Source: Alphaproteobacteria bacterium (lineage in GTDB: Bacteria > Pseudomonadota > Alphaproteobacteria > Rs-D84). From it: 64,000 bases of DNA. The stretch is taken from the NCBI GenBank assembly GCA_017535105.1, contig JAFXUI010000001.1:174612-238611 (forward strand), read 5' to 3'. This document shows positions 10,630 through 56,461 of the stretch, piece after piece. The translations under genes and the position numbers were made by a program. How positions within the stretch are numbered: the first letter of the stretch is position 1; each line of letters starts with the position of its first letter. Under the pieces are notes generated by a model, which had not been told where the DNA came from, did no database searches, and saw only the letters and a list, made by a program, of their open reading frames with translations.

Positions 10630-12369
10630 ATGCCCGTACGTGTTTTACCCGATTTTTTGGTAAATCAAATTGCCGCAGGTGAGGTTGTTGAACGGCCCGC
10701 GTCTGTGGTCAAAGAATTGGTGGAAAATGCGCTGGACGCGGGTGCCGATGAAATTGTGATTGATATTGTTGATGGGGGGCGCACCCTGGTTTCCGTGATT
10801 GATAACGGGTCTGGAATGTCGCGTGATGATTTGTCCCGCGCAATAATGCGGCATGCGACATCTAAATTACCCGATGATAATTTACAAAACATTTCTTATA
10901 TGGGTTTTCGTGGTGAAGCGTTGCCGTCAATTGCGTCTGTATCCGATATGACAATTGATACGTGTAATGGTTTGGAAGAGAATGGTTGGCACATGGATTG
11001 TACGACAACCGATATTCGACCATCTGATTGGGAATCGGGAACACGTATTCGTGTTGAAAACTTGTTTGCGAAAACGCCGGCGCGATTAAAGTTTTTGCGT
11101 TCTGACCGCGCCGAAATGATGTCGGTGTTGGACGTTGTAAAACGTTTGGCAATGGCACGCGGGGACGTTGGCTTTACATTAAATAATAAATGGCGTTTTC
11201 CGAAAAATCAGTCACTGGCGGACAGAATTGTCGCCGTTATGGGTGATGATGTTGCAGGGCAAATGTTGACAGTTGATGCGACGTCGGCTTCATCAAATAT
11301 GCATCTGCATGGTTTTATATCCAAGCCAACATTACGACGTGCGACATCGGTTGACCAGTTTTTGTTTGTAAACAATCGTCCAGTAAATGACAAGGTTTTA
11401 ATTGGCGCATTACGTGCCGCATATATGGACGTTATGCATGCGCGTGAGTTTCCGTTGTGCGCGTTATATTTGGATATTGATTCCGCGGCGGTGGACGTAA
11501 ATGTTTCGCCGGCAAAAACCGAAGTGCATTTTTTGGAACCAAACCATGTGCGTGCATTTATTATAAAATCACTGCGTGACACTTTGGCAAAAACGATGAA
11601 CGAGACGGTTGTACAAAACACTGCAACCCCAGGAAACAATGCACATACAGAAAAATTACAGTTTAATATTCCGCCGGTATCATCGTGGCATGTTTCAGAT
11701 AAAAAGACAGCCAATTGGATAACAGATACATTTAATCGGGCGCCAGATGGGAACGTAAAACCGTTTGAATCGGAATTAAAGTCGGGTGATGATAATACAA
11801 CCGATTTACCGTTGGGTCGTGTGATTGGTCAAATTGGTAATAAGTATATTTTGGCGTGGTCTGGTGAAAACCTGGTTATTGTTGACCAGCATGCCGCGCA
11901 CGAACGCATAACATATGAACGGTTGCGTCGGCATACGATTAAAACACAGCCACTTCTTACGCCGATTGTTGTGAATTTGCGTACCGAAGATGTTATGGCG
12001 GTAATGACGATTTCCAATGAATTACGCGATTCGGGGTTGCATGTTGATACGTTTGGTGATGATGCAATTGCGATTTTTGAAAAGCCAGCCGATTGGGATA
12101 TGGACTGGGGTGCGGTATTACATGATATCGCAGATGAGGTTCGTGCCAACGGTCATTCATCGGAATTACAAGAAAAGTTGCACTTGAAATTGGCAAATTA
12201 CGCATGCCATCACAGCGTGCGTGCCGGGCAAAAGTTGGATTTTGCCCAAATGGACGCATTACTTCGCGACATTGAAAATACAACGCGCGGGGGCGAATGC
12301 AACCATGGCCGGCCGGTGTATAAATTTATACCGCTGACCGAAATAGACGGGTGGTTTGAACGTATTTAA
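10630..12369 (+). CDS. mutL: DNA mismatch repair protein MutL
   Basis: 579 aa. GHKL ATPase N-terminus NQIAAGEVVERPASVVKELVENALDAGA, DNGSGM, and C-terminal dimerisation region. Confidence 0.95.
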   Translation: MPVRVLPDFLVNQIAAGEVVERPASVVKELVENALDAGADEIVIDIVDGGRTLVSVIDNGSGMSRDDLSRAIMRHATSKLPDDNLQNISYMGFRGEALPSIASVSDMTIDTCNGLEENGWHMDCTTTDIRPSDWESGTRIRVENLFAKTPARLKFLRSDRAEMMSVLDVVKRLAMARGDVGFTLNNKWRFPKNQSLADRIVAVMGDDVAGQMLTVDATSASSNMHLHGFISKPTLRRATSVDQFLFVNNRPVNDKVLIGALRAAYMDVMHAREFPLCALYLDIDSAAVDVNVSPAKTEVHFLEPNHVRAFIIKSLRDTLAKTMNETVVQNTATPGNNAHTEKLQFNIPPVSSWHVSDKKTANWITDTFNRAPDGNVKPFESELKSGDDNTTDLPLGRVIGQIGNKYILAWSGENLVIVDQHAAHERITYERLRRHTIKTQPLLTPIVVNLRTEDVMAVMTISNELRDSGLHVDTFGDDAIAIFEKPADWDMDWGAVLHDIADEVRANGHSSELQEKLHLKLANYACHHSVRAGQKLDFAQMDALLRDIENTTRGGECNHGRPVYKFIPLTEIDGWFERI

Positions 12370-23650: not shown

Positions 23651-25519
23651 ATGACAAGACGGGTTAGAAAGATTACCACGGCGATTAAAAGAAAAAGACG
23701 AGATCTTTGGTCCAGAATGCAGGAAGACTTTAAAGAAACGTGGAATATTATAAAGCGTCCGTTGAAAAAAGATGCCGCGGGTAATATAAAAAATGGTGAA
23801 ATTGCGCACAAGGTTGGTGATGCGGCATGGTCTGGGTATATAACCACACTTGATTTGACAAGTGCCGTATTTTTATGGTTTTCGCATAAAATTGCCAAGG
23901 GCGCTTTGGATAACAAAGCAATCGATTTGGTGGAAAAAAAGTATGCCAAACAAAAAGTGAAAAAGAACAAAGATGGCAAATTAAGAACATTACCAAAACT
24001 TACCAAGAAATTTTCGCGTCAAGCGGCATACGTGACATATTATGCGATGTTGCTGGGGCTGTTGGCTGGTGCGTATGGTATGTATAACAAAGATAACATA
24101 AAAGAAAATGCCAAAAATAAAATTGAAAATGTAAAAAGTATATTGTCAAAAAAAGATATAACAAAGATAAAGTTGAATCCAAATTCTGATGATTTTATCA
24201 ATCAATGTATCGAACTTGAAAACATCACTTGTATCCCCATTATTTATACGGAAACATATCGTGAAACACCGGTTGTTCAATACGGGGAAAATGTGTGGAC
24301 ACGTGGTTTTGGAATGACTTGGTCGCGTGACGCAAACGGTCGTATGAAAATTCGTGATTATGATGATAGTGAATATAATCGTAAGAAAAACTATAAACCA
24401 CACAAGCCAGAACCCGATGCAAATATGGACGCTTCGATTGAAGATACACAACAGTATTTGAAAGATTATGTATATGGTCAGATAAAAGATAACATGACGC
24501 GTGAAATGACGGCAATGGAATTTGTCGCGCTTTGTGTCGCTGGATATCAGTTGCCTGGACATATACCATTAATGTGTCAACAATTAAGCAATGCAAAAAC
24601 ACCCCAAAAAATAGCAGATGCGTTTATGACACCAACGATGTATAACTATGGTGGAACGCCGAAACGTCGGTGGGTTTGTGGTATGTTGGCCGCTGGTTAT
24701 ATTACCTTAGAAGATGTATTGAATGCAGATGTTGACGCGTTCTATGGTCCAGATCAAAATACATTTATAAGAAAAGGGCATTTTATTTGTTTGCCGGCAA
24801 CCATAGAATATGTGATGTCCCTTGAAAGATCGCATTCTACCCGTGAAGTTGTAGAAGGTTTGAATGACGGACAATTGGCGTTAAACCAATTGGGCAAGGG
24901 TGTTCGGGTGCATCGTGTCAAAGTGGAAAAAGACAACGAGTCGGAACAAATAGAAGAATCTATGACGACTTTGATTAGTGCGAAAAAAATGTATGATAAG
25001 GGTGATTTTGAAAGTGCGGCAGATTTGTTTGAACGCGCAATCAAAGAAGATCCAAATAATATGGAAGCATACAGCAGTTTGGCACTTACATATAAAAAAC
25101 TTGGTGATAAAAACAAGTCGTTGGAATATTATGAAAAGTGCACAGAAACGGTCAAGGAATGTAATGCCTATATGAATCAACACCGCGATTTGTTGTATGA
25201 TGCCGGGGTTAAAGCATCGTCTTATTATAATGCTGGTTTGGCACGCGAAGCGATGGCCAAGATTTATGAAGACAAGGGTGAAAGTGGCAACGCACAGGCA
25301 AATTATAACAAGGCGTTACAAAACTATAAGACCGCACGCGAAAATGCAATAAAGGCAAAAATTGATACAAACGTGTATGATAATGCTATCAATCGTATCA
25401 CAAAGATTATTAATGGTGGCAAGAAAGTTGCGTTTGATAAGGCAAATAAAAAACTAAAGAAAAAGGCACAGAAAAGTAAACTTTTACAAACCGAGAAAAA
25501 TGCTGAAGGTCGCGCCTAG
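23651..25519 (+). CDS. membrane-anchored TPR-repeat protein (possible lysozyme-like central region)
   Basis: 622 aa. Basic N-terminus, one TM helix (AAYVTYYAMLLGLLAGAYGMY), C-terminal TPR repeats (GDFESAADLFERAIKEDPNNMEAYSSLALTYKKLGDKNKSLEYYEKC...). The central region has a weak E...Y...G..T.GFG pattern. Confidence 0.55.
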   Translation: MTRRVRKITTAIKRKRRDLWSRMQEDFKETWNIIKRPLKKDAAGNIKNGEIAHKVGDAAWSGYITTLDLTSAVFLWFSHKIAKGALDNKAIDLVEKKYAKQKVKKNKDGKLRTLPKLTKKFSRQAAYVTYYAMLLGLLAGAYGMYNKDNIKENAKNKIENVKSILSKKDITKIKLNPNSDDFINQCIELENITCIPIIYTETYRETPVVQYGENVWTRGFGMTWSRDANGRMKIRDYDDSEYNRKKNYKPHKPEPDANMDASIEDTQQYLKDYVYGQIKDNMTREMTAMEFVALCVAGYQLPGHIPLMCQQLSNAKTPQKIADAFMTPTMYNYGGTPKRRWVCGMLAAGYITLEDVLNADVDAFYGPDQNTFIRKGHFICLPATIEYVMSLERSHSTREVVEGLNDGQLALNQLGKGVRVHRVKVEKDNESEQIEESMTTLISAKKMYDKGDFESAADLFERAIKEDPNNMEAYSSLALTYKKLGDKNKSLEYYEKCTETVKECNAYMNQHRDLLYDAGVKASSYYNAGLAREAMAKIYEDKGESGNAQANYNKALQNYKTARENAIKAKIDTNVYDNAINRITKIINGGKKVAFDKANKKLKKKAQKSKLLQTEKNAEGRA

Positions 25520-25543
25520 GCCTGTATAGAGGGGTTTAATACA

Positions 25544-27586
25544 ATGCAAGTTTATGTAAATATAAATGATAAACGTTGGAAGAAATACGATATTGATTTT
25601 AATCGTATCGCGGCGGCGGCGGGTCCGAAACGCAAGGGGGTTGAGGTTTCAATTACTCTGACCGATGATAAGGAAATACATAAACTGAACAAGAAATATC
25701 GTGGTATGGATAAACCAACAAATGTGTTGTCATTTGAGTTGGGTGATGATGTTTTATTGGGGGATATTTATATTTCACTTGATACGGTTAAACGCGAAGC
25801 GGCGGCGGAAAACATAAGTGTTGCCGAACACACCGCGCACATGGTTGTACATGGTATGTTACATTTGCAGGGTTATGATCATATAACCGATGACGAAGCG
25901 TCTGTTATGGAATCCAAAGAAATCGCTATAATGAAAAAGTTGGGTTATAAAAATCCCTATGCCGATGAATGTAATTGCGGCTGTGGCGGGAAATGCAATT
26001 GTGTTGATTGTAAGTGTAAAAATTGTTCGTGTTGTAATTGTCCAGGCGATAAAACAATATCGTTTTTTAAAAAGATAAAAATTCGTGAAAATGGATTTTG
26101 GCAATACGCGCTATATGCACTGTTTGGCGGTGTTACAGCATTCGGGTTTGCACCGTTCTATTGTTGGTGGGCGACGGTATTGGGTGTTGCGGGCGCATAT
26201 TGGTTGACAATGCGCAGAACAAAATTTGGTAATTGGCGTCATGAGTTTTTAAGAGCCGCACCATTTGGTATAATGTATGCAATCGCGATGCTGTGGTGGA
26301 CATTAAATTCAATCTATGTCGTGCCAGAGTTAGCAAAACAATTTGCAATATGGACGGTGCCGGCATTATTGGGTATCGGCCTGTTTGGTTCTTTATTCTT
26401 TACATTACCGTTTCTTGCTATTGCGCGTGGCGGTTTGTCTTGTGCGGGACGGGTGTTTATGTTTTCGGGCGTGTGGACATTTGTGTTATGGTTGCGCGAA
26501 TGGTTTTGTTCCGGATTTCCATGGAACCCAATTGCAAATATTGCCTTGCCATTTCCAGTAATTGCGAATTCGATGTCGGTATGGGGTGCGTTGGGTTTAA
26601 CGTTTATTATAATCGGCATAATCGCAAGTGTAGTTGAGATGTTAAAAAATCGCAAATGTGCGCAATGTTGGTGGATATTATTGTTCTTTGTCATAATGGC
26701 TGTATGTGGCGGATTTGCCGGCATACATAATATTCGTGTTGCGTCAAACGATGTATCAAAGTCCGCGGTCATTCGGATTGTTCAACCGGCACAGTCACAG
26801 GGGCAAAAGATGGTATATTCGCGCGAAGATGCATTAAAGCGTGCTGAAGAAAATTTGATAAGATTGTTTCAGTTGGCATCGGACGGCGACAAACCTGATA
26901 TAATCGTTTTTCCAGAAACGACATATCCATATACAATTACAAACAATGACGATATGCCGTTGGCATCGGCATTAAAAACAAATGTTGTTATTGGGGCAAC
27001 GGGATTTCTGGACGGCGCGCCATATAATTCAATGATTGTTGCAGATTCAGATGGTAAGATTACAAGCATATATAACAAATCACACCTTGTTCCATTTGGT
27101 GAATACAGTTTGTTCGGTTTTATGCCATCACCGGCGCATTTAAGTCGCGGGGGCGGGGCGGAACTGATTTCAATGATGGTCGATGGTGGTGAATTTGTTT
27201 TTGCGCCGGCCATTTGCTATGAAATTATTTTTTCTGATTCTTTGGTACCAGACTCTGATTTGGCGCCACACGCCATAATCAACATTACAAACGATACTTG
27301 GTTTGGTAAAACCCCCGGGACATATCAGCATCTTGATATGGTGCGCCGGTACGCGATTGAATCGGGATTGCCGATTATTCGTGCGAACTATTCAGGGATA
27401 AGTGCGTTTGTTTTGTCGAACGGTGAAATATTGTCTGCATTACCAATTGGCCAGGTTGGCACATTGGACGGTACGGTTTGGGGTGCGCATAAAACAATTT
27501 ATCGCGGTATTGGTCGTAACCGGATAATGATTTTGATTTTGTTGCTTTCGATAGTCGGCGTAATGCTTGGCCGGAAAAGAAAATAA
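25544..27586 (+). CDS. fusion protein: rRNA maturation endoribonuclease YbeY + Cys-rich linker + apolipoprotein N-acyltransferase Lnt
   Basis: Uninterrupted 680-aa ORF. aa 1-140 are YbeY (HGMLHLQGYDH). aa 143-166 read CNCGCGGKCNCVDCKCKNCSCCNC. aa ~175-680 are Lnt (multi-TM half plus CN-hydrolase half with IVFPETTYP, YNKSHLVPFGEY, FAPAICYEIIF). Confidence 0.85.
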   Translation: MQVYVNINDKRWKKYDIDFNRIAAAAGPKRKGVEVSITLTDDKEIHKLNKKYRGMDKPTNVLSFELGDDVLLGDIYISLDTVKREAAAENISVAEHTAHMVVHGMLHLQGYDHITDDEASVMESKEIAIMKKLGYKNPYADECNCGCGGKCNCVDCKCKNCSCCNCPGDKTISFFKKIKIRENGFWQYALYALFGGVTAFGFAPFYCWWATVLGVAGAYWLTMRRTKFGNWRHEFLRAAPFGIMYAIAMLWWTLNSIYVVPELAKQFAIWTVPALLGIGLFGSLFFTLPFLAIARGGLSCAGRVFMFSGVWTFVLWLREWFCSGFPWNPIANIALPFPVIANSMSVWGALGLTFIIIGIIASVVEMLKNRKCAQCWWILLFFVIMAVCGGFAGIHNIRVASNDVSKSAVIRIVQPAQSQGQKMVYSREDALKRAEENLIRLFQLASDGDKPDIIVFPETTYPYTITNNDDMPLASALKTNVVIGATGFLDGAPYNSMIVADSDGKITSIYNKSHLVPFGEYSLFGFMPSPAHLSRGGGAELISMMVDGGEFVFAPAICYEIIFSDSLVPDSDLAPHAIINITNDTWFGKTPGTYQHLDMVRRYAIESGLPIIRANYSGISAFVLSNGEILSALPIGQVGTLDGTVWGAHKTIYRGIGRNRIMILILLLSIVGVMLGRKRK

Positions 27587-27596
27587 AAGTTTCAAA

Positions 27597-27815
27597 TCAT
27601 AAATGATTTTTTAATATCCACACGCGGATTGCAGAGGACAGGTTAGTGCCCGGTTTGCGTGCGGAATCTATTTTGTTTATTATAGATGCAATTGAAACCT
27701 TATCGTGTTTTGCGATTTGGTGCAGGGCGGTTATGAATTCATCTTCCAGTGAAATACTGGTTTGATGTCCCGATAAAGATACAGATATTTTTTTCATATC
27801 AGAATTTTCCCGCAA
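27597..27815 (-). CDS. ribbon-helix-helix (RHH_4-type) domain protein
   Basis: 72 aa. ISVSLSGHQTSISLEDEFITALHQIAKHDKVSIASIINKIDSAR...NLSSAIRVWIL matches the RHH_4 pattern common in alphaproteobacteria. Overlaps the upstream gene by 17 nt. Confidence 0.7.
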   Translation of the reverse strand: MRENSDMKKISVSLSGHQTSISLEDEFITALHQIAKHDKVSIASIINKIDSARKPGTNLSSAIRVWILKNHL

Positions 27816-28233
27816 TTAAACAATCATACATTGCGCGATATGGATCGTCATATTTTCGTAATATGCGCAGGTTCAAGTTATCCAGCATATAGAACGTTCC
27901 AAACGCGTCAAATGCGAACCAAAATAAATCATTGCGACCAAATACCGTTTTCCCACGCAGTGCGGGTATGTTGCCCAACGGCATATTTATATCCATAATG
28001 GACGGTATGGGAAAACGCGCATCGCGCGGAATTTCAATCGGGGAAAAGATGTAACCATTGCCAATATTTATTGCCGATGCAAAACGGTACAGTTCGATTA
28101 AAACCGCCGGAAACATTGCACATCGCCGCGATTGTAACGCGTTGTTGGAAAGTTCCACATCACGCTTGGTCGCCGGCGGATAAATTGTTGCGCCACGTGA
28201 TTTTAATGAAGATAAAAATTCAGTTGTTGTCAT
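27799..28233 (-). CDS. SMI1/KNR4 (SUKH superfamily)-like protein
   Basis: 144 aa. PPATKRDVELSNNALQSRRCAMFPAVLIELYRFASAINIGNGYIF ... TVFGRNDLFWFAFDAFGTFYMLD follows the SUKH layout. Assignment is by eye only. Confidence 0.45.
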   Translation of the reverse strand: MTTTEFLSSLKSRGATIYPPATKRDVELSNNALQSRRCAMFPAVLIELYRFASAINIGNGYIFSPIEIPRDARFPIPSIMDINMPLGNIPALRGKTVFGRNDLFWFAFDAFGTFYMLDNLNLRILRKYDDPYRAMYDCLIAGKF

Positions 28234-28235
28234 TT

Positions 28236-28742
28236 TTACTCCATTCCATGTGACGTTGATATTTGTGCTGCCAATTGACTAAAGCGGTCTTCGGTTGCAT
28301 TGCCACCGTCACCACTGTTACCCATGTTGGCGGGAATGTAAATCTTTTTCGCTGGGTTTGGTAACCAAACCGATTCATTGCCAGCCTGTTCAATAATAAA
28401 GCGGTCCATATTGTGTGAATGCGGAAAGGTCATACACATAAACAGATTATCAATTTCCAACTTGCCACCCCAGACAAGTGGCACACGAAAACGCACCGAC
28501 AGATTTTCGGGCATACGCCGACCCATGACCAAGTCGATAAAATCTTGTTGGGGCAGGCCCATAAAAGCAATTTCTTGGATTGAATCGGTAAGTGTTGTTG
28601 TAAATTGGCGCACTAATTCATGATACTTTTGAAACCAATCGGGTGCAACGGGGTGTGGTTTTGGGTATATCTGTTCCAGGGGCAAATCGTCCATTCGTAA
28701 TTCGGCAATTCTTTTTTCTGCGGCGTCCTGGCTTAACTGCAT
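28236..28742 (-). CDS. hypothetical protein with HNH-like (beta-beta-alpha-Me) motif lacking the first His
   Basis: 168 aa. RFRVPLVWGGKLEIDNLFMCMTFPHSHN resembles HH..P...GG.....NL..LC..CH...H, but the general-base His position is Phe. Confidence 0.35.
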   Translation of the reverse strand: MQLSQDAAEKRIAELRMDDLPLEQIYPKPHPVAPDWFQKYHELVRQFTTTLTDSIQEIAFMGLPQQDFIDLVMGRRMPENLSVRFRVPLVWGGKLEIDNLFMCMTFPHSHNMDRFIIEQAGNESVWLPNPAKKIYIPANMGNSGDGGNATEDRFSQLAAQISTSHGME

Positions 28743-29662
28743 CAGATTTTTCCTATGTAATCAATAACCGTTCCGATATATGCGGAATAGGCGTCAAAGT
28801 TTTCAGCGTCGTCATCAGATAATGTATTTGGGTGTGCCATTATGTATGTGCGCAATTCATCAACCGTTGCAAATTGTAATATTGATGGTTCGCTGTTTTC
28901 CGATGCGTCAGGCGCACCAATGATAAACGCGTTTATGTTTATTTCGATGTCTTCCAATGTGTCCATAAACACACCGCGCATTGTGTCGATTGCCACTTTC
29001 ATATCGGACGTTTTTACGCCGGTTGCACCAAGCCATAAAACCTCATCAGCACCAATGGCGATAACGGACGATTGCATATTTTTAATGCGGGGCGAACCCT
29101 TGTACACAAAGCCGGCCGATGTAAAGATTTCATGTATATCGGCATATTCTGTTTCCGGATCAATTTTTGCCTTTGGTGTGGTGGACGACAATGGTACATG
29201 TGGCGTGGGGGCACGTGTTATCGTAGCCGTTGGAATATTTAAACGCGGTGGACGGACAAGCCCGCTTTGTGTTGGGGCGGTTGCCTGGGGTGCGGGGACC
29301 ACGGGTTCGGCTTGTGCTATGGGTTGTTCCGCAACAGGTGCGGGTTGAACCATCGGTTGGACAACAGGTTGAATTGGCGTATCTGGTTTTTTCGTGTCCA
29401 TAACAGGCATAGTTATTCTGCGACGACGTGGCTGTAATAATGTGTAAAGTCCTAATACGCCAATAATCAACACGACAACAATGGATACATAGAAAGATGT
29501 GGCAACAGGACGGTTGGACGCCTGCATATACGCAAGATATTGCCAATGCTGGGCAACAAAAATGTTAAAGCCATAGCGTATGTTAAACCAAAAACTTGCC
29601 GCCAGGGTCACAAGAAGCAACCACAGCAGCCCAACTAAAATGTTGTTCATTCTGTTTTTCAT
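28742..29662 (-). CDS. membrane protein: 2 TM helices, P/Q/A/V-rich linker, C-terminal globular domain
   Basis: 306 aa. TM1 ILVGLLWLLLVTLAASFWF, TM2 FYVSIVVVLIIGVLGLYTLL, linker PIQPVVQPMVQPAPVAEQPIAQAEPVVPAPQATAP, then about 130 aa of C-terminal domain. First gene of a 4-gene minus-strand operon. Confidence 0.6.
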   Translation of the reverse strand: MKNRMNNILVGLLWLLLVTLAASFWFNIRYGFNIFVAQHWQYLAYMQASNRPVATSFYVSIVVVLIIGVLGLYTLLQPRRRRITMPVMDTKKPDTPIQPVVQPMVQPAPVAEQPIAQAEPVVPAPQATAPTQSGLVRPPRLNIPTATITRAPTPHVPLSSTTPKAKIDPETEYADIHEIFTSAGFVYKGSPRIKNMQSSVIAIGADEVLWLGATGVKTSDMKVAIDTMRGVFMDTLEDIEININAFIIGAPDASENSEPSILQFATVDELRTYIMAHPNTLSDDDAENFDAYSAYIGTVIDYIGKI

Positions 29663-55163: not shown

Positions 55164-56461
55164 TCGACAATTTTTCCGCGCAGTGATGCCTTGTTTGCGG
55201 CGGTAATCTTTATATCGCATATTTGTTTGGGGTCACCGTCTGGGCGCGCCACGATACACTGTTGCATATATGGAGTGCGATAAACAAGGTGATGACCAGT
55301 TTTATCGGGACCCTCACACAGACAGGTCAATGTTTTATCAATACACGATTCATTGAAAGCGCGTTGAATTTCATTTAATTCAGAATCAAGAATCGCCAAT
55401 CGTTTTGACTTTATTGTTTCTGGAATCTGGTCGGGCATAATTGCCGCGGCGGTATGGGGGCGGGGCGAATATTTGAACGAAAATGAATTTATGTATTTAA
55501 CCTGATGCGCTATATCCAATGTTTTCTGAAAATCATTATCTGATTCACCAGGGAACCCAACAATAAAGTCCGAAGATATTTGAATGTCTGGTCGCGCCAA
55601 TTTCAATTTATGAACAATGTTCATATATTGATCCAAATCGTATGGACGATTCATGCGCTTCAAGACATCGGGCGAACCGCTTTGAATTGGCATATTAAGA
55701 AATGGTAATAATTTTGGTTCAACCGCGAACATATTTATTAAATCATCGGTCATTTCGGTCGGATAACTGGACGTGAAACGGATACGTTTAATGCTGGCAA
55801 TTTTTGCCGCCGCTTTAATTAAATCAGACAAACGGTATGTCGTTCCGTTTTCATCGGTATATTTATATCCATTGACGTTTTGTCCCAAAAAGCAGATTTC
55901 AACCGCGCCTGTATTTGCAGCCAATTCGACATCGCGAACACAATCGGCATATGCGCGCGATATTTCACGGCCACGGGTATATGGCACAATACAGTATGTA
56001 CAGCAATGGTTACAACCTTCTTGAATTGGGACGTATGTGACAAGTGGTGATTTTTCCATTTGTGGCATTTCATCGAATTTTTCCAAACCAGATAATTCAA
56101 TATTAAATAAACGCATGTCTGGGTCATTCAATATCTCGGGCAATTTATGATAACTCTGTGGACCCAAAACAAAGTTCAAATCTGGTACGCGTTTAAATGC
56201 ATCTGCGCCTGATTCGCGTGCAACACAGCCAACAATGCCCATTATTGCGTCTGGCTTTTTTACAAGACGTATACGGCCCAATGCAGAATATACTTTATCG
56301 GTTGCCTTGGCACGAACAGCACATGTGTTCAATATGATAATATCGGCATCGGCAACATCGTCTGTTTTGACCATACCGCGCGCGTCCAACATTGCCGCAA
56401 TGCGCCAGCCGTCATAGACGTTCATTTGACAACCAAAAGTTTGGATAAAGTATTTTTTCAT
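55160..56461 (-). CDS. miaB: tRNA-2-methylthio-N6-dimethylallyladenosine synthase MiaB
   Basis: 433 aa. UPF0004 N-terminus FGCQMNVYD, radical-SAM GCNHCCTYCIVPYTRGRE, C-terminal TRAM-like region. Confidence 0.9.
   Translation of the reverse strand: MKKYFIQTFGCQMNVYDGWRIAAMLDARGMVKTDDVADADIIILNTCAVRAKATDKVYSALGRIRLVKKPDAIMGIVGCVARESGADAFKRVPDLNFVLGPQSYHKLPEILNDPDMRLFNIELSGLEKFDEMPQMEKSPLVTYVPIQEGCNHCCTYCIVPYTRGREISRAYADCVRDVELAANTGAVEICFLGQNVNGYKYTDENGTTYRLSDLIKAAAKIASIKRIRFTSSYPTEMTDDLINMFAVEPKLLPFLNMPIQSGSPDVLKRMNRPYDLDQYMNIVHKLKLARPDIQISSDFIVGFPGESDNDFQKTLDIAHQVKYINSFSFKYSPRPHTAAAIMPDQIPETIKSKRLAILDSELNEIQRAFNESCIDKTLTCLCEGPDKTGHHLVYRTPYMQQCIVARPDGDPKQICDIKITAANKASLRGKIVD

Follow-up and report, generated by a model that had tools for sequence, protein, structure and literature searches.

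A single open reading frame joins YbeY to apolipoprotein N-acyltransferase in Alphaproteobacteria of the order Rs-D84

Analysis of a stretch of 64,000 nucleotides from an alphaproteobacterium of the order Rs-D84 (contig JAFXUI010000001.1 of assembly GCA_017535105.1, positions 174,612 to 238,611 of the forward strand; hereafter the window) revealed one open reading frame (ORF) in which the rRNA maturation endoribonuclease YbeY is fused to the apolipoprotein N-acyltransferase Lnt. The fusion is confirmed as real, since the same single frame recurs in a large number of independent protein clusters, and it brings together two familiar enzymes in an architecture that is widespread yet undescribed. 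We consider it likely that this gene is translated into a single membrane protein with two functions, that its domains each keep doing their ancestral job, and that the fusion is a tolerated outcome of genome streamlining. YbeY, an essential factor of ribosome assembly, would then probably be anchored to the inner membrane; both enzymatic activities would be retained, the fused gene would be the only ybeY and the only lnt of the cell, and the two domains would be joined without being mechanistically coupled. Few bacterial proteins are as conserved as YbeY, whose precise contribution to 30S maturation is still under debate, and the interest of the fusion lies mainly in its being a natural experiment on where YbeY can work.

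One Uninterrupted Frame Encodes Complete YbeY and Lnt Enzymes

The ybeY::lnt coding sequence (25544–27586, + strand; about 200 homologous fusion clusters) consists of 680 amino acids (aa) plus stop and runs from an ATG start codon in an uninterrupted frame. Reading of the sequence upstream identified a Shine-Dalgarno-like AGAGGGG (25528–25534, + strand), located 9 nt 5′ of the ATG, as the only ribosome-binding site for both domains, and a scan of the region between 23.0 and 28.3 kb for promoters and terminators gave counts equal to the shuffled expectation. Pfam matches along the ORF were, in this order, YbeY (aa 30–133, E 1.6e-35), LNT_N (aa 195–358), and CN_hydrolase (aa 445–641), so that the protein is laid out as a YbeY domain (aa 1–142), a Cys-rich linker, and Lnt (aa ~180–680). 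An AlphaFold2 model of the fusion, for which a 104-sequence alignment was used as input, had a mean predicted local distance difference test (pLDDT) value of 83 and a predicted template modelling (pTM) score of 0.71, and both enzymes folded with confidence.

The YbeY domain (25544–25969, + strand; aa 1–142) was complete through its C-terminal GYKNPYADE. It scored 122 bits against PF02130 (YbeY; cut-off 25) and 130 bits against the NCBIfam YbeY equivalog TIGR00043 (cut-off 45; profile positions 14–145 of 146), and aa 31–142 aligned with residues 37–153 of the 155-residue Escherichia coli YbeY (1XM5), with about 41% identity over the aligned structure. The zinc-binding motif HGMLHLQGYDH (25850–25882, + strand), with H103, H107, and H113 in the arrangement H-x3-H-x5-H, aligned with HGSLHLLGYDH of 1XM5 and 1XAX and was invariant in all 104 aligned sequences. 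The model reached a pLDDT of ~85–90 over aa 1–135, and its YbeY fold gave Foldseek target-normalised template-modelling scores (TM-scores) of 0.79 against 1XM5 and 0.85 against 1OZ9. YbeY was also the best-conserved region of the protein, with 76% mean identity to the window sequence, and its RNase activity is predicted to be that of a zinc-dependent, single-strand-specific endoribonuclease acting as a 30S maturation factor.

The C-terminal part scored 218 bits against the NCBIfam lnt equivalog TIGR00546 (cut-off 133), 64 bits against PF20154 (LNT_N), and 74 bits against PF00795 (CN_hydrolase), and in a search of solved structures aa 186–645 aligned with Pseudomonas aeruginosa Lnt. It comprises a membrane domain of seven transmembrane (TM) helices (26096–26746, + strand; aa 185–401), delimited by PF20154, the AlphaFold2 helices, and Foldseek comparison with Lnt structures; a periplasmic CN-hydrolase domain of nitrilase fold (26771–27493, + strand; aa 410–650), delimited by hidden Markov models (HMMs) and structure alignment; and an eighth AlphaFold2 helix, TM8 (27515–27571, + strand; aa 658–676), next to which lies a basic cytoplasmic tail, GRKRK. 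Foldseek comparison with the E. coli and P. aeruginosa Lnt structures gave target-normalised TM-scores of 0.75–0.80. The catalytic residues E458 (26915–26917), K512 (27077–27079), and C558 (27215–27217; all + strand) are carried by IVFPETTYP, YNKSHLVPFGEY, and APAICYE, respectively; they aligned with the PET, K..LVPFGE, and ICYE motifs of P. aeruginosa (5N6M) and E. coli (5VRG) Lnt, in the latter of which the triad is E267/K335/C387, and they were invariant across the 104 sequences. Mean identity to the window was 62% for the membrane part and 68% for the hydrolase domain. This part is therefore predicted to be a standard eight-TM Lnt that would N-acylate diacylglyceryl-Cys apolipoproteins on the periplasmic side by means of its Glu-Lys-Cys triad.

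Since seven helices lie ahead of the periplasmic domain and basic residues flank both TM1 (KKIKIR, ahead of the helix) and the C-terminus, the YbeY domain would have to be cytoplasmic, its sidedness following from homology with solved Lnt. The alignment of aa 31–142 to E. coli YbeY and of aa 186–645 to P. aeruginosa Lnt indicated that both enzymes are complete, and both halves look functional from their sequences. An earlier note, made from the letters of this DNA alone, had described one unbroken 680-aa frame containing a complete YbeY in residues 1–140 with HGMLHLQGYDH at aa 103–113, a complete Lnt in about residues 175–680 with Glu, Lys, and Cys candidates in the motifs quoted above, and a topologically feasible fusion with the Lnt N-terminus in the cytoplasm. 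The frame and the position of the zinc motif were found as described, the three Pfam models that the note had named as a check (YbeY, Lnt N-terminal, and CN-hydrolase) all matched and both equivalog cut-offs were passed, the completeness of the two enzymes and the identity of the three catalytic residues were borne out by the curated HMMs and the alignments to solved structures, and the proposed topology was supported by the AlphaFold2 helix order and the Lys/Arg-rich flanks.

The Fusion Recurs Among Relatives

In order to know whether relatives carry the same fusion, a check that the earlier note had proposed, homologues were searched for in a collection of 5.8 billion proteins grouped into 90%-identity clusters. 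All of the 120 best matches (57–100% identical to the query) contained the three Pfam domains, and all were 627–692 aa long except one 544-aa partial sequence; their source assemblies came from ENA, NCBI, JGI, and Logan. A search seeded with a distant fused protein added ~77 more fusion clusters (631–758 aa), which brought the total to about 200 distinct clusters with the same single frame. Among 50%-identity representatives, covered by an exhaustive search, at least eight were of fusion length, and fused proteins diverged so deeply that some were only 30–35% identical to each other. The invariance of H103/H107/H113 and E458/K512/C558, together with the conservation across homologues, indicated that both halves are under purifying selection.

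These results left next to no probability for an assembly artefact or a pseudogene, in which a stop codon would have been lost, or a frameshift introduced, in this contig only. Sister lineages are indeed one in-frame stop codon away from fusion, so that a single base error could mimic it, and one example of this may be P0145, a singleton fused protein that has unfused proteins as its nearest relatives. The window's gene, however, shares its frame with about 200 independent clusters in which the catalytic residues are invariant and the junction is conserved, and the artefact was rejected on these grounds. P0145 was not retained as a second independent fusion family either; as a singleton, it may have been fused independently or result from an error of one base.

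Neither the window nor the flanks (±10 kb) of eight fused loci contained a further copy of ybeY or lnt. In the locus of the Candidatus Enterousia sp. representative (L004), a second, partial Lnt-like ORF (12014–12304) directly follows the fusion gene; it matches positions 125–201 of the Lnt model with 120 bits and could stem from a duplication at this site or from a repeat in the assembly. Two labels among the homologous loci were at odds with their content: P0060, a fusion protein ~60% identical to that of the window, is labelled “Muribaculaceae bacterium,” and L007, which has an alphaproteobacterial miaB-phoH-ybeY-lnt order, is labelled “Lachnospiraceae bacterium”; both contigs are probably mis-binned.

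A Cys-Rich Linker Joins the Two Enzymes and Contains No Start Codon for Lnt

The two enzymes are connected by the linker CNCGCGGKCNCVDCKCKNCSCCNCPG (25970–26047, + strand; aa 143–168), which is metallothionein-like, with 11 Cys in 26 residues, and by a short basic helix, DKTISFFKK (26048–26074, + strand; aa 169–177), placed directly before TM1 by the AlphaFold2 secondary structure. The helix is conserved as K.ISF.KK.KIREN, the junction K.ISF.KK.KIRENGFWQY is also kept, and the model suggests that the helix probably lies on the cytoplasmic surface of the membrane. In 70 of the 104 sequences the linker has exactly three Cys, most visibly as CxDGxCCPG, and C158, C163, C166, and G168 are at least 90% conserved. 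In the window's own subclade this clade-wide motif has grown to 8–11 Cys (CxCGCGxxCNC…CKNCSCCNCPG), with conserved Cys positions and variable spacer residues. The region aa 139–184 had no Pfam match at E values up to 10, and hence none to a metallothionein or zinc-finger family, and no DNA tandem repeat was found within the linker, so that both a tandem repeat and a known Pfam family were rejected as its identity. That it acts as a metal-binding tether is a guess, prompted by YbeY being a zinc enzyme, and such a role is putative.

The length of the linker varies from 11 to 47 residues (median 34) in the window's clade, and in the most distant fused proteins only ~5–10 residues separate the YbeY C-terminus (KNPYK) from TM1, a distance that keeps YbeY at the membrane surface. 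These features bear on whether the tethered form is the mature one. A protease might cut the flexible linker and free a soluble YbeY, the fusion being then a precursor; the stretch aa 141–168, which AlphaFold2 left unmodelled (pLDDT <50), is predicted to be disordered, and together with the variable length this would suit such processing. However, the shortest linkers leave scant room for a processing site, the conserved linker residues are Cys and form no recognisable cleavage motif, and no dedicated protease gene lies nearby, all of which makes a precursor decidedly unlikely.

It was also considered that one ORF could yield two proteins through a separate start of Lnt. The linker of some fused relatives does contain a Met, and in the short linker of L005 (…NPYKEPFAV-MKKVGLF…) an apparent old Lnt start is retained. 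In the window, however, the codons that lie between 134 and 212 of this frame, from within the final helix of YbeY to halfway through TM1 of Lnt, include no ATG, GTG, or TTG. Among seven further fused loci, in-frame starts within the linker were sporadic and not conserved in position, and no Shine-Dalgarno-like sequence was seen by eye ahead of them. Independent initiation of Lnt is thus very unlikely. The earlier statement that no Met lies between the end of YbeY and TM1 of Lnt therefore holds and extends to GTG and TTG, and its corollary that Lnt has no independent start is supported for the window.

Gene Order in Related Genomes Suggests a Stepwise Route to the Fusion

In order to place the fusion among its relatives, 80 loci (±10 kb around each match) from species-representative genomes were scanned with HMMs built from the two halves of the fusion, and MiaB, PhoH, and CorC from a Bradyrhizobium locus with the classical miaB-phoH-ybeY-corC-lnt order were used as probes. 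Four states were distinguished. Most Alphaproteobacteria, including L009, L032, L049, L056, L069, L074, and L076, retain corC between ybeY and lnt, in agreement with the neighbourhood that the earlier note had given for many proteobacteria. In a second state (L007, L026, L043, L046, and L048) corC is gone and miaB-phoH-ybeY directly adjoins lnt; in a third (L005 and L006) miaB is directly followed by the fused ybeY::lnt, both phoH and corC being gone; and in the fourth (L001–L004 and the window) the fused gene stands without any of its old neighbours. In tblastn searches with the Bradyrhizobium proteins, neither phoH nor corC was found in the 64-kb window or in L001–L006, while both were found in seven control loci. 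The ancestral upstream neighbour miaB (39% identity, E 5e-103) was located at 55169–56458 on the − strand, ~27.6 kb off, in line with the 28 kb and the lack of intervening phoH and corC reported earlier.

The junctions of the second state look, from their sequences, like the immediate precursor of the fusion. In L007 (10502–10510) the junction reads NPYQE-TAA-aga-ATG, with ybeY and lnt in one frame, and in L026 (10520–10534) a TAG, 9 nt, and an ATG are also in one frame; in both, a single substitution in the stop codon would give a fusion. The junctions of L046 and L048 are TAATG and ATGA overlaps. In two of these loci (L046, 10375–10600; L026, 10532–10740) Lnt itself has a hydrophilic N-terminal extension of ~70 residues before TM1, which is Lys/Ala-rich in L046, and cytoplasmic N-terminal additions to Lnt thus seem to have been tolerated repeatedly.

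A tree of the Lnt domain, built by neighbour joining and so based on distances only, grouped all fused sequences except P0145 in one clade with 78% bootstrap. The loci with abutting genes formed a separate clade with 100% support, which included two loci still containing corC, and this implies that the loss of corC recurred. A direct sister relationship between the abutting loci and the fused clade was unsupported, their joint clade having only 46% bootstrap.

Taken with the gene orders, these data suggest a route in which the ancestral miaB-phoH-ybeY-corC-lnt cluster would first have lost corC, bringing ybeY next to lnt, and then the intervening stop codon, giving a single polypeptide; phoH is also missing beside the fused genes. 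The order Rs-D84 (Candidatus Enterousia and relatives), which is gut-associated and genome-reduced, would be among the lineages in which the fusion arose, and in the window's clade the fused gene would later have been relocated away from miaB. In the resulting protein a linker of 5–45 residues would tether YbeY to TM1 on the cytoplasmic side, and the maturation of the 16S rRNA 3′ end in these cells would be carried out by a membrane-anchored YbeY. Order Rs-D84, Enterousia included, has been described as a gut lineage whose genomes are smaller than about 1 Mb and whose members probably depend on partners (PMC12306168). Such a setting suits both the disappearance of corC and phoH and the fusion of genes that lie side by side.

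A Tolerated Fusion or a Functional Link

The fusion could instead be adaptive, the tethering of YbeY to Lnt coupling 30S maturation or ribosome quality control to lipoprotein maturation, either spatially or stoichiometrically. This “Rosetta stone” interpretation would explain why ybeZ-ybeY-ybeX-lnt stay together across Proteobacteria. It would agree with the persistence of the fusion over deep divergence, with its possible origin on more than one occasion (P0145; L005/P0126 versus stand-alone relatives), with the Cys motif conserved in the linker, with the very short linkers that keep YbeY tight at the membrane in distant members, and with the precedent of YbeY fused to a true partner, Era (PMC10582724). 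On the other hand, the membrane separates the two active sites, YbeY and Lnt are not known to share a substrate or a pathway, and reduced genomes often contain fusions of adjacent genes. In addition, phoH and corC, the neighbours with which YbeY is known to be associated, have been lost and were not kept near the fusion, and some members of the clade have an unlinked lnt. A functional link of ribosome quality control to lipoprotein maturation may be read into the architecture, but the gene-order series is at least as compatible with adjacent genes having fused neutrally during genome reduction, and we regard an adaptive origin as unlikely.

Several points nevertheless weigh against a simple tolerated fusion. 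Stand-alone Lnt proteins, whose genes are not next to ybeY, nest within the fused clade (P0133/L081; the gene upstream of lnt in the P0133 locus is not ybeY), and for this reason either the fused gene must have been split at some point or fusion must have taken place more than once; the latter would be a hint of selection, not of neutrality. The conserved Cys motif suggests that the tether is more than a passive remnant. That a 77-kDa product accumulates uncleaved is predicted from the sequence, and a second, divergent ybeY or lnt may lie outside the window and the ±10 kb flanks.

A further interpretation, which we hold to be rather unlikely, is that YbeY normally works at or near the inner membrane together with the envelope-biogenesis machinery (Lnt and CorC), that reduced genomes have hard-wired this association, and that a zinc-binding Cys tether serves the nuclease. 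If true, it would provide a mechanistic basis for the long-unexplained conservation of the ybeZYX-lnt operon.

Comparison With Known YbeY and Lnt Systems

The YbeY half shares with the stand-alone enzymes of E. coli (1XM5) and Haemophilus influenzae (HI0004, 1XAX) a full-length domain, the H-x3-H-x5-H zinc site, and the same fold, but its C-terminus runs into the Cys-rich linker and a membrane protein, making free diffusion impossible, and the locus lacks phoH (ybeZ) and corC (ybeX), which normally accompany ybeY. Likewise, the Lnt half resembles stand-alone Lnt of E. coli (5N6H/5VRG) and P. aeruginosa (5N6M) in its eight TM helices, periplasmic nitrilase-fold domain, and Glu-Lys-Cys motifs, and differs in having a second enzyme of ~180 residues as a cytoplasmic N-terminal addition and no start codon of its own. 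With respect to the classical ybeZ(phoH)-ybeY-ybeX(corC)-lnt operon of Proteobacteria, the same order and orientation are kept, with ybeY ahead of lnt, and the fusion can be viewed as its collapsed version; it has lost corC, phoH, and the stop codon between ybeY and lnt, and in the window's clade it no longer lies next to miaB.

Tolerance of Lnt to fusion with a cytoplasmic enzyme domain is also seen in the mycobacterial Ppm1-type fusion, in which an Lnt-like domain is joined to a polyprenol-phosphate-mannose synthase. There, however, the partner is C-terminal and also acts in envelope lipid or glycolipid biosynthesis, whereas in YbeY-Lnt it is an N-terminal RNase. Among the 50%-identity representatives, one Lnt of 816 aa (P0167) has a C-terminal extension. 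To our knowledge, Lnt has no link to ribosome biogenesis beyond operon neighbourhood. YbeY-Era fusions, which occur in Clostridia and Selenomonadales (PMC10582724), are similar in that YbeY is the N-terminal module of a clade-restricted two-enzyme polypeptide. They differ in the nature of the partner: on the 30S subunit Era interacts directly with YbeY, both physically and in function, whereas Lnt is an integral membrane protein.

No description of a YbeY-Lnt architecture was found in the full-text literature searched, the scope of which did not extend to the YbeY review of Liao et al. (2021); the YbeY fusion that this literature treats is the one with Era (PMC10582724). The earlier supposition of novelty therefore stands for the architecture but not for the proteins, which are already present in public databases, named only “apolipoprotein N-acyltransferase.” This naming constitutes a systematic annotation gap, through which ybeY could be counted as absent from these genomes when surveys are automated. 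Nature here provides a clade whose YbeY, probably the sole copy, is anchored to the membrane for good, in some members only 5–10 residues from a TM helix. It would mean that YbeY need not diffuse freely to do its job, and it limits the ways in which YbeY can be modelled to encounter the nascent 30S subunit. It also offers a ready-made construct with which to ask whether the widespread ybeY-lnt neighbourhood reflects a functional link or operon inertia, and a clean stepwise example of gene fusion via stop-codon loss during genome reduction.

Flanking Genes and Distribution

The closest species-representative genomes (56–58% identity) are metagenome-assembled genomes from rumen, caecum, and human gut, one of them a Candidatus Enterousia sp.; Ca. 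Enterousia (order Rs-D84) is the nearest named relative. Upstream of the fusion, a gene for a 622-aa protein with tetratricopeptide repeats (TPR; 23651–25519, + strand; Pfam TPR matches) ends 24 nt before ybeY::lnt; its position beside the fusion is conserved in this clade, and it is probably co-transcribed with it. The order rarA-mucR-TPR-fusion is common to the window and the pig-gut loci L083/L084, whose fusion homologue is 62% identical. Downstream, three consecutive ORFs of 144, 168, and 306 aa (27802–29662, − strand) had no Pfam match, and ORFs of like size and order also follow the fusion in L083/L084.

In the loci with a stand-alone lnt (L081 and L082), a secreted-looking, Cys-rich protein of 174 aa is encoded in ybeY's place upstream of lnt. 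About 2 kb downstream of lnt, both loci contain a compact type II CRISPR-Cas system (L081, 5195–9080; L082, 5106–8991) that codes for a 990-aa Cas9 with HNH and RuvC matches, followed by Cas1 and Cas2. Finally, the guanine-cytosine (GC) skew of the window was strongly positive (about +0.15 to +0.26) from ~10 kb to ~56 kb and near zero or negative before and after these points, which may mark strand-bias boundaries or rearrangement points.

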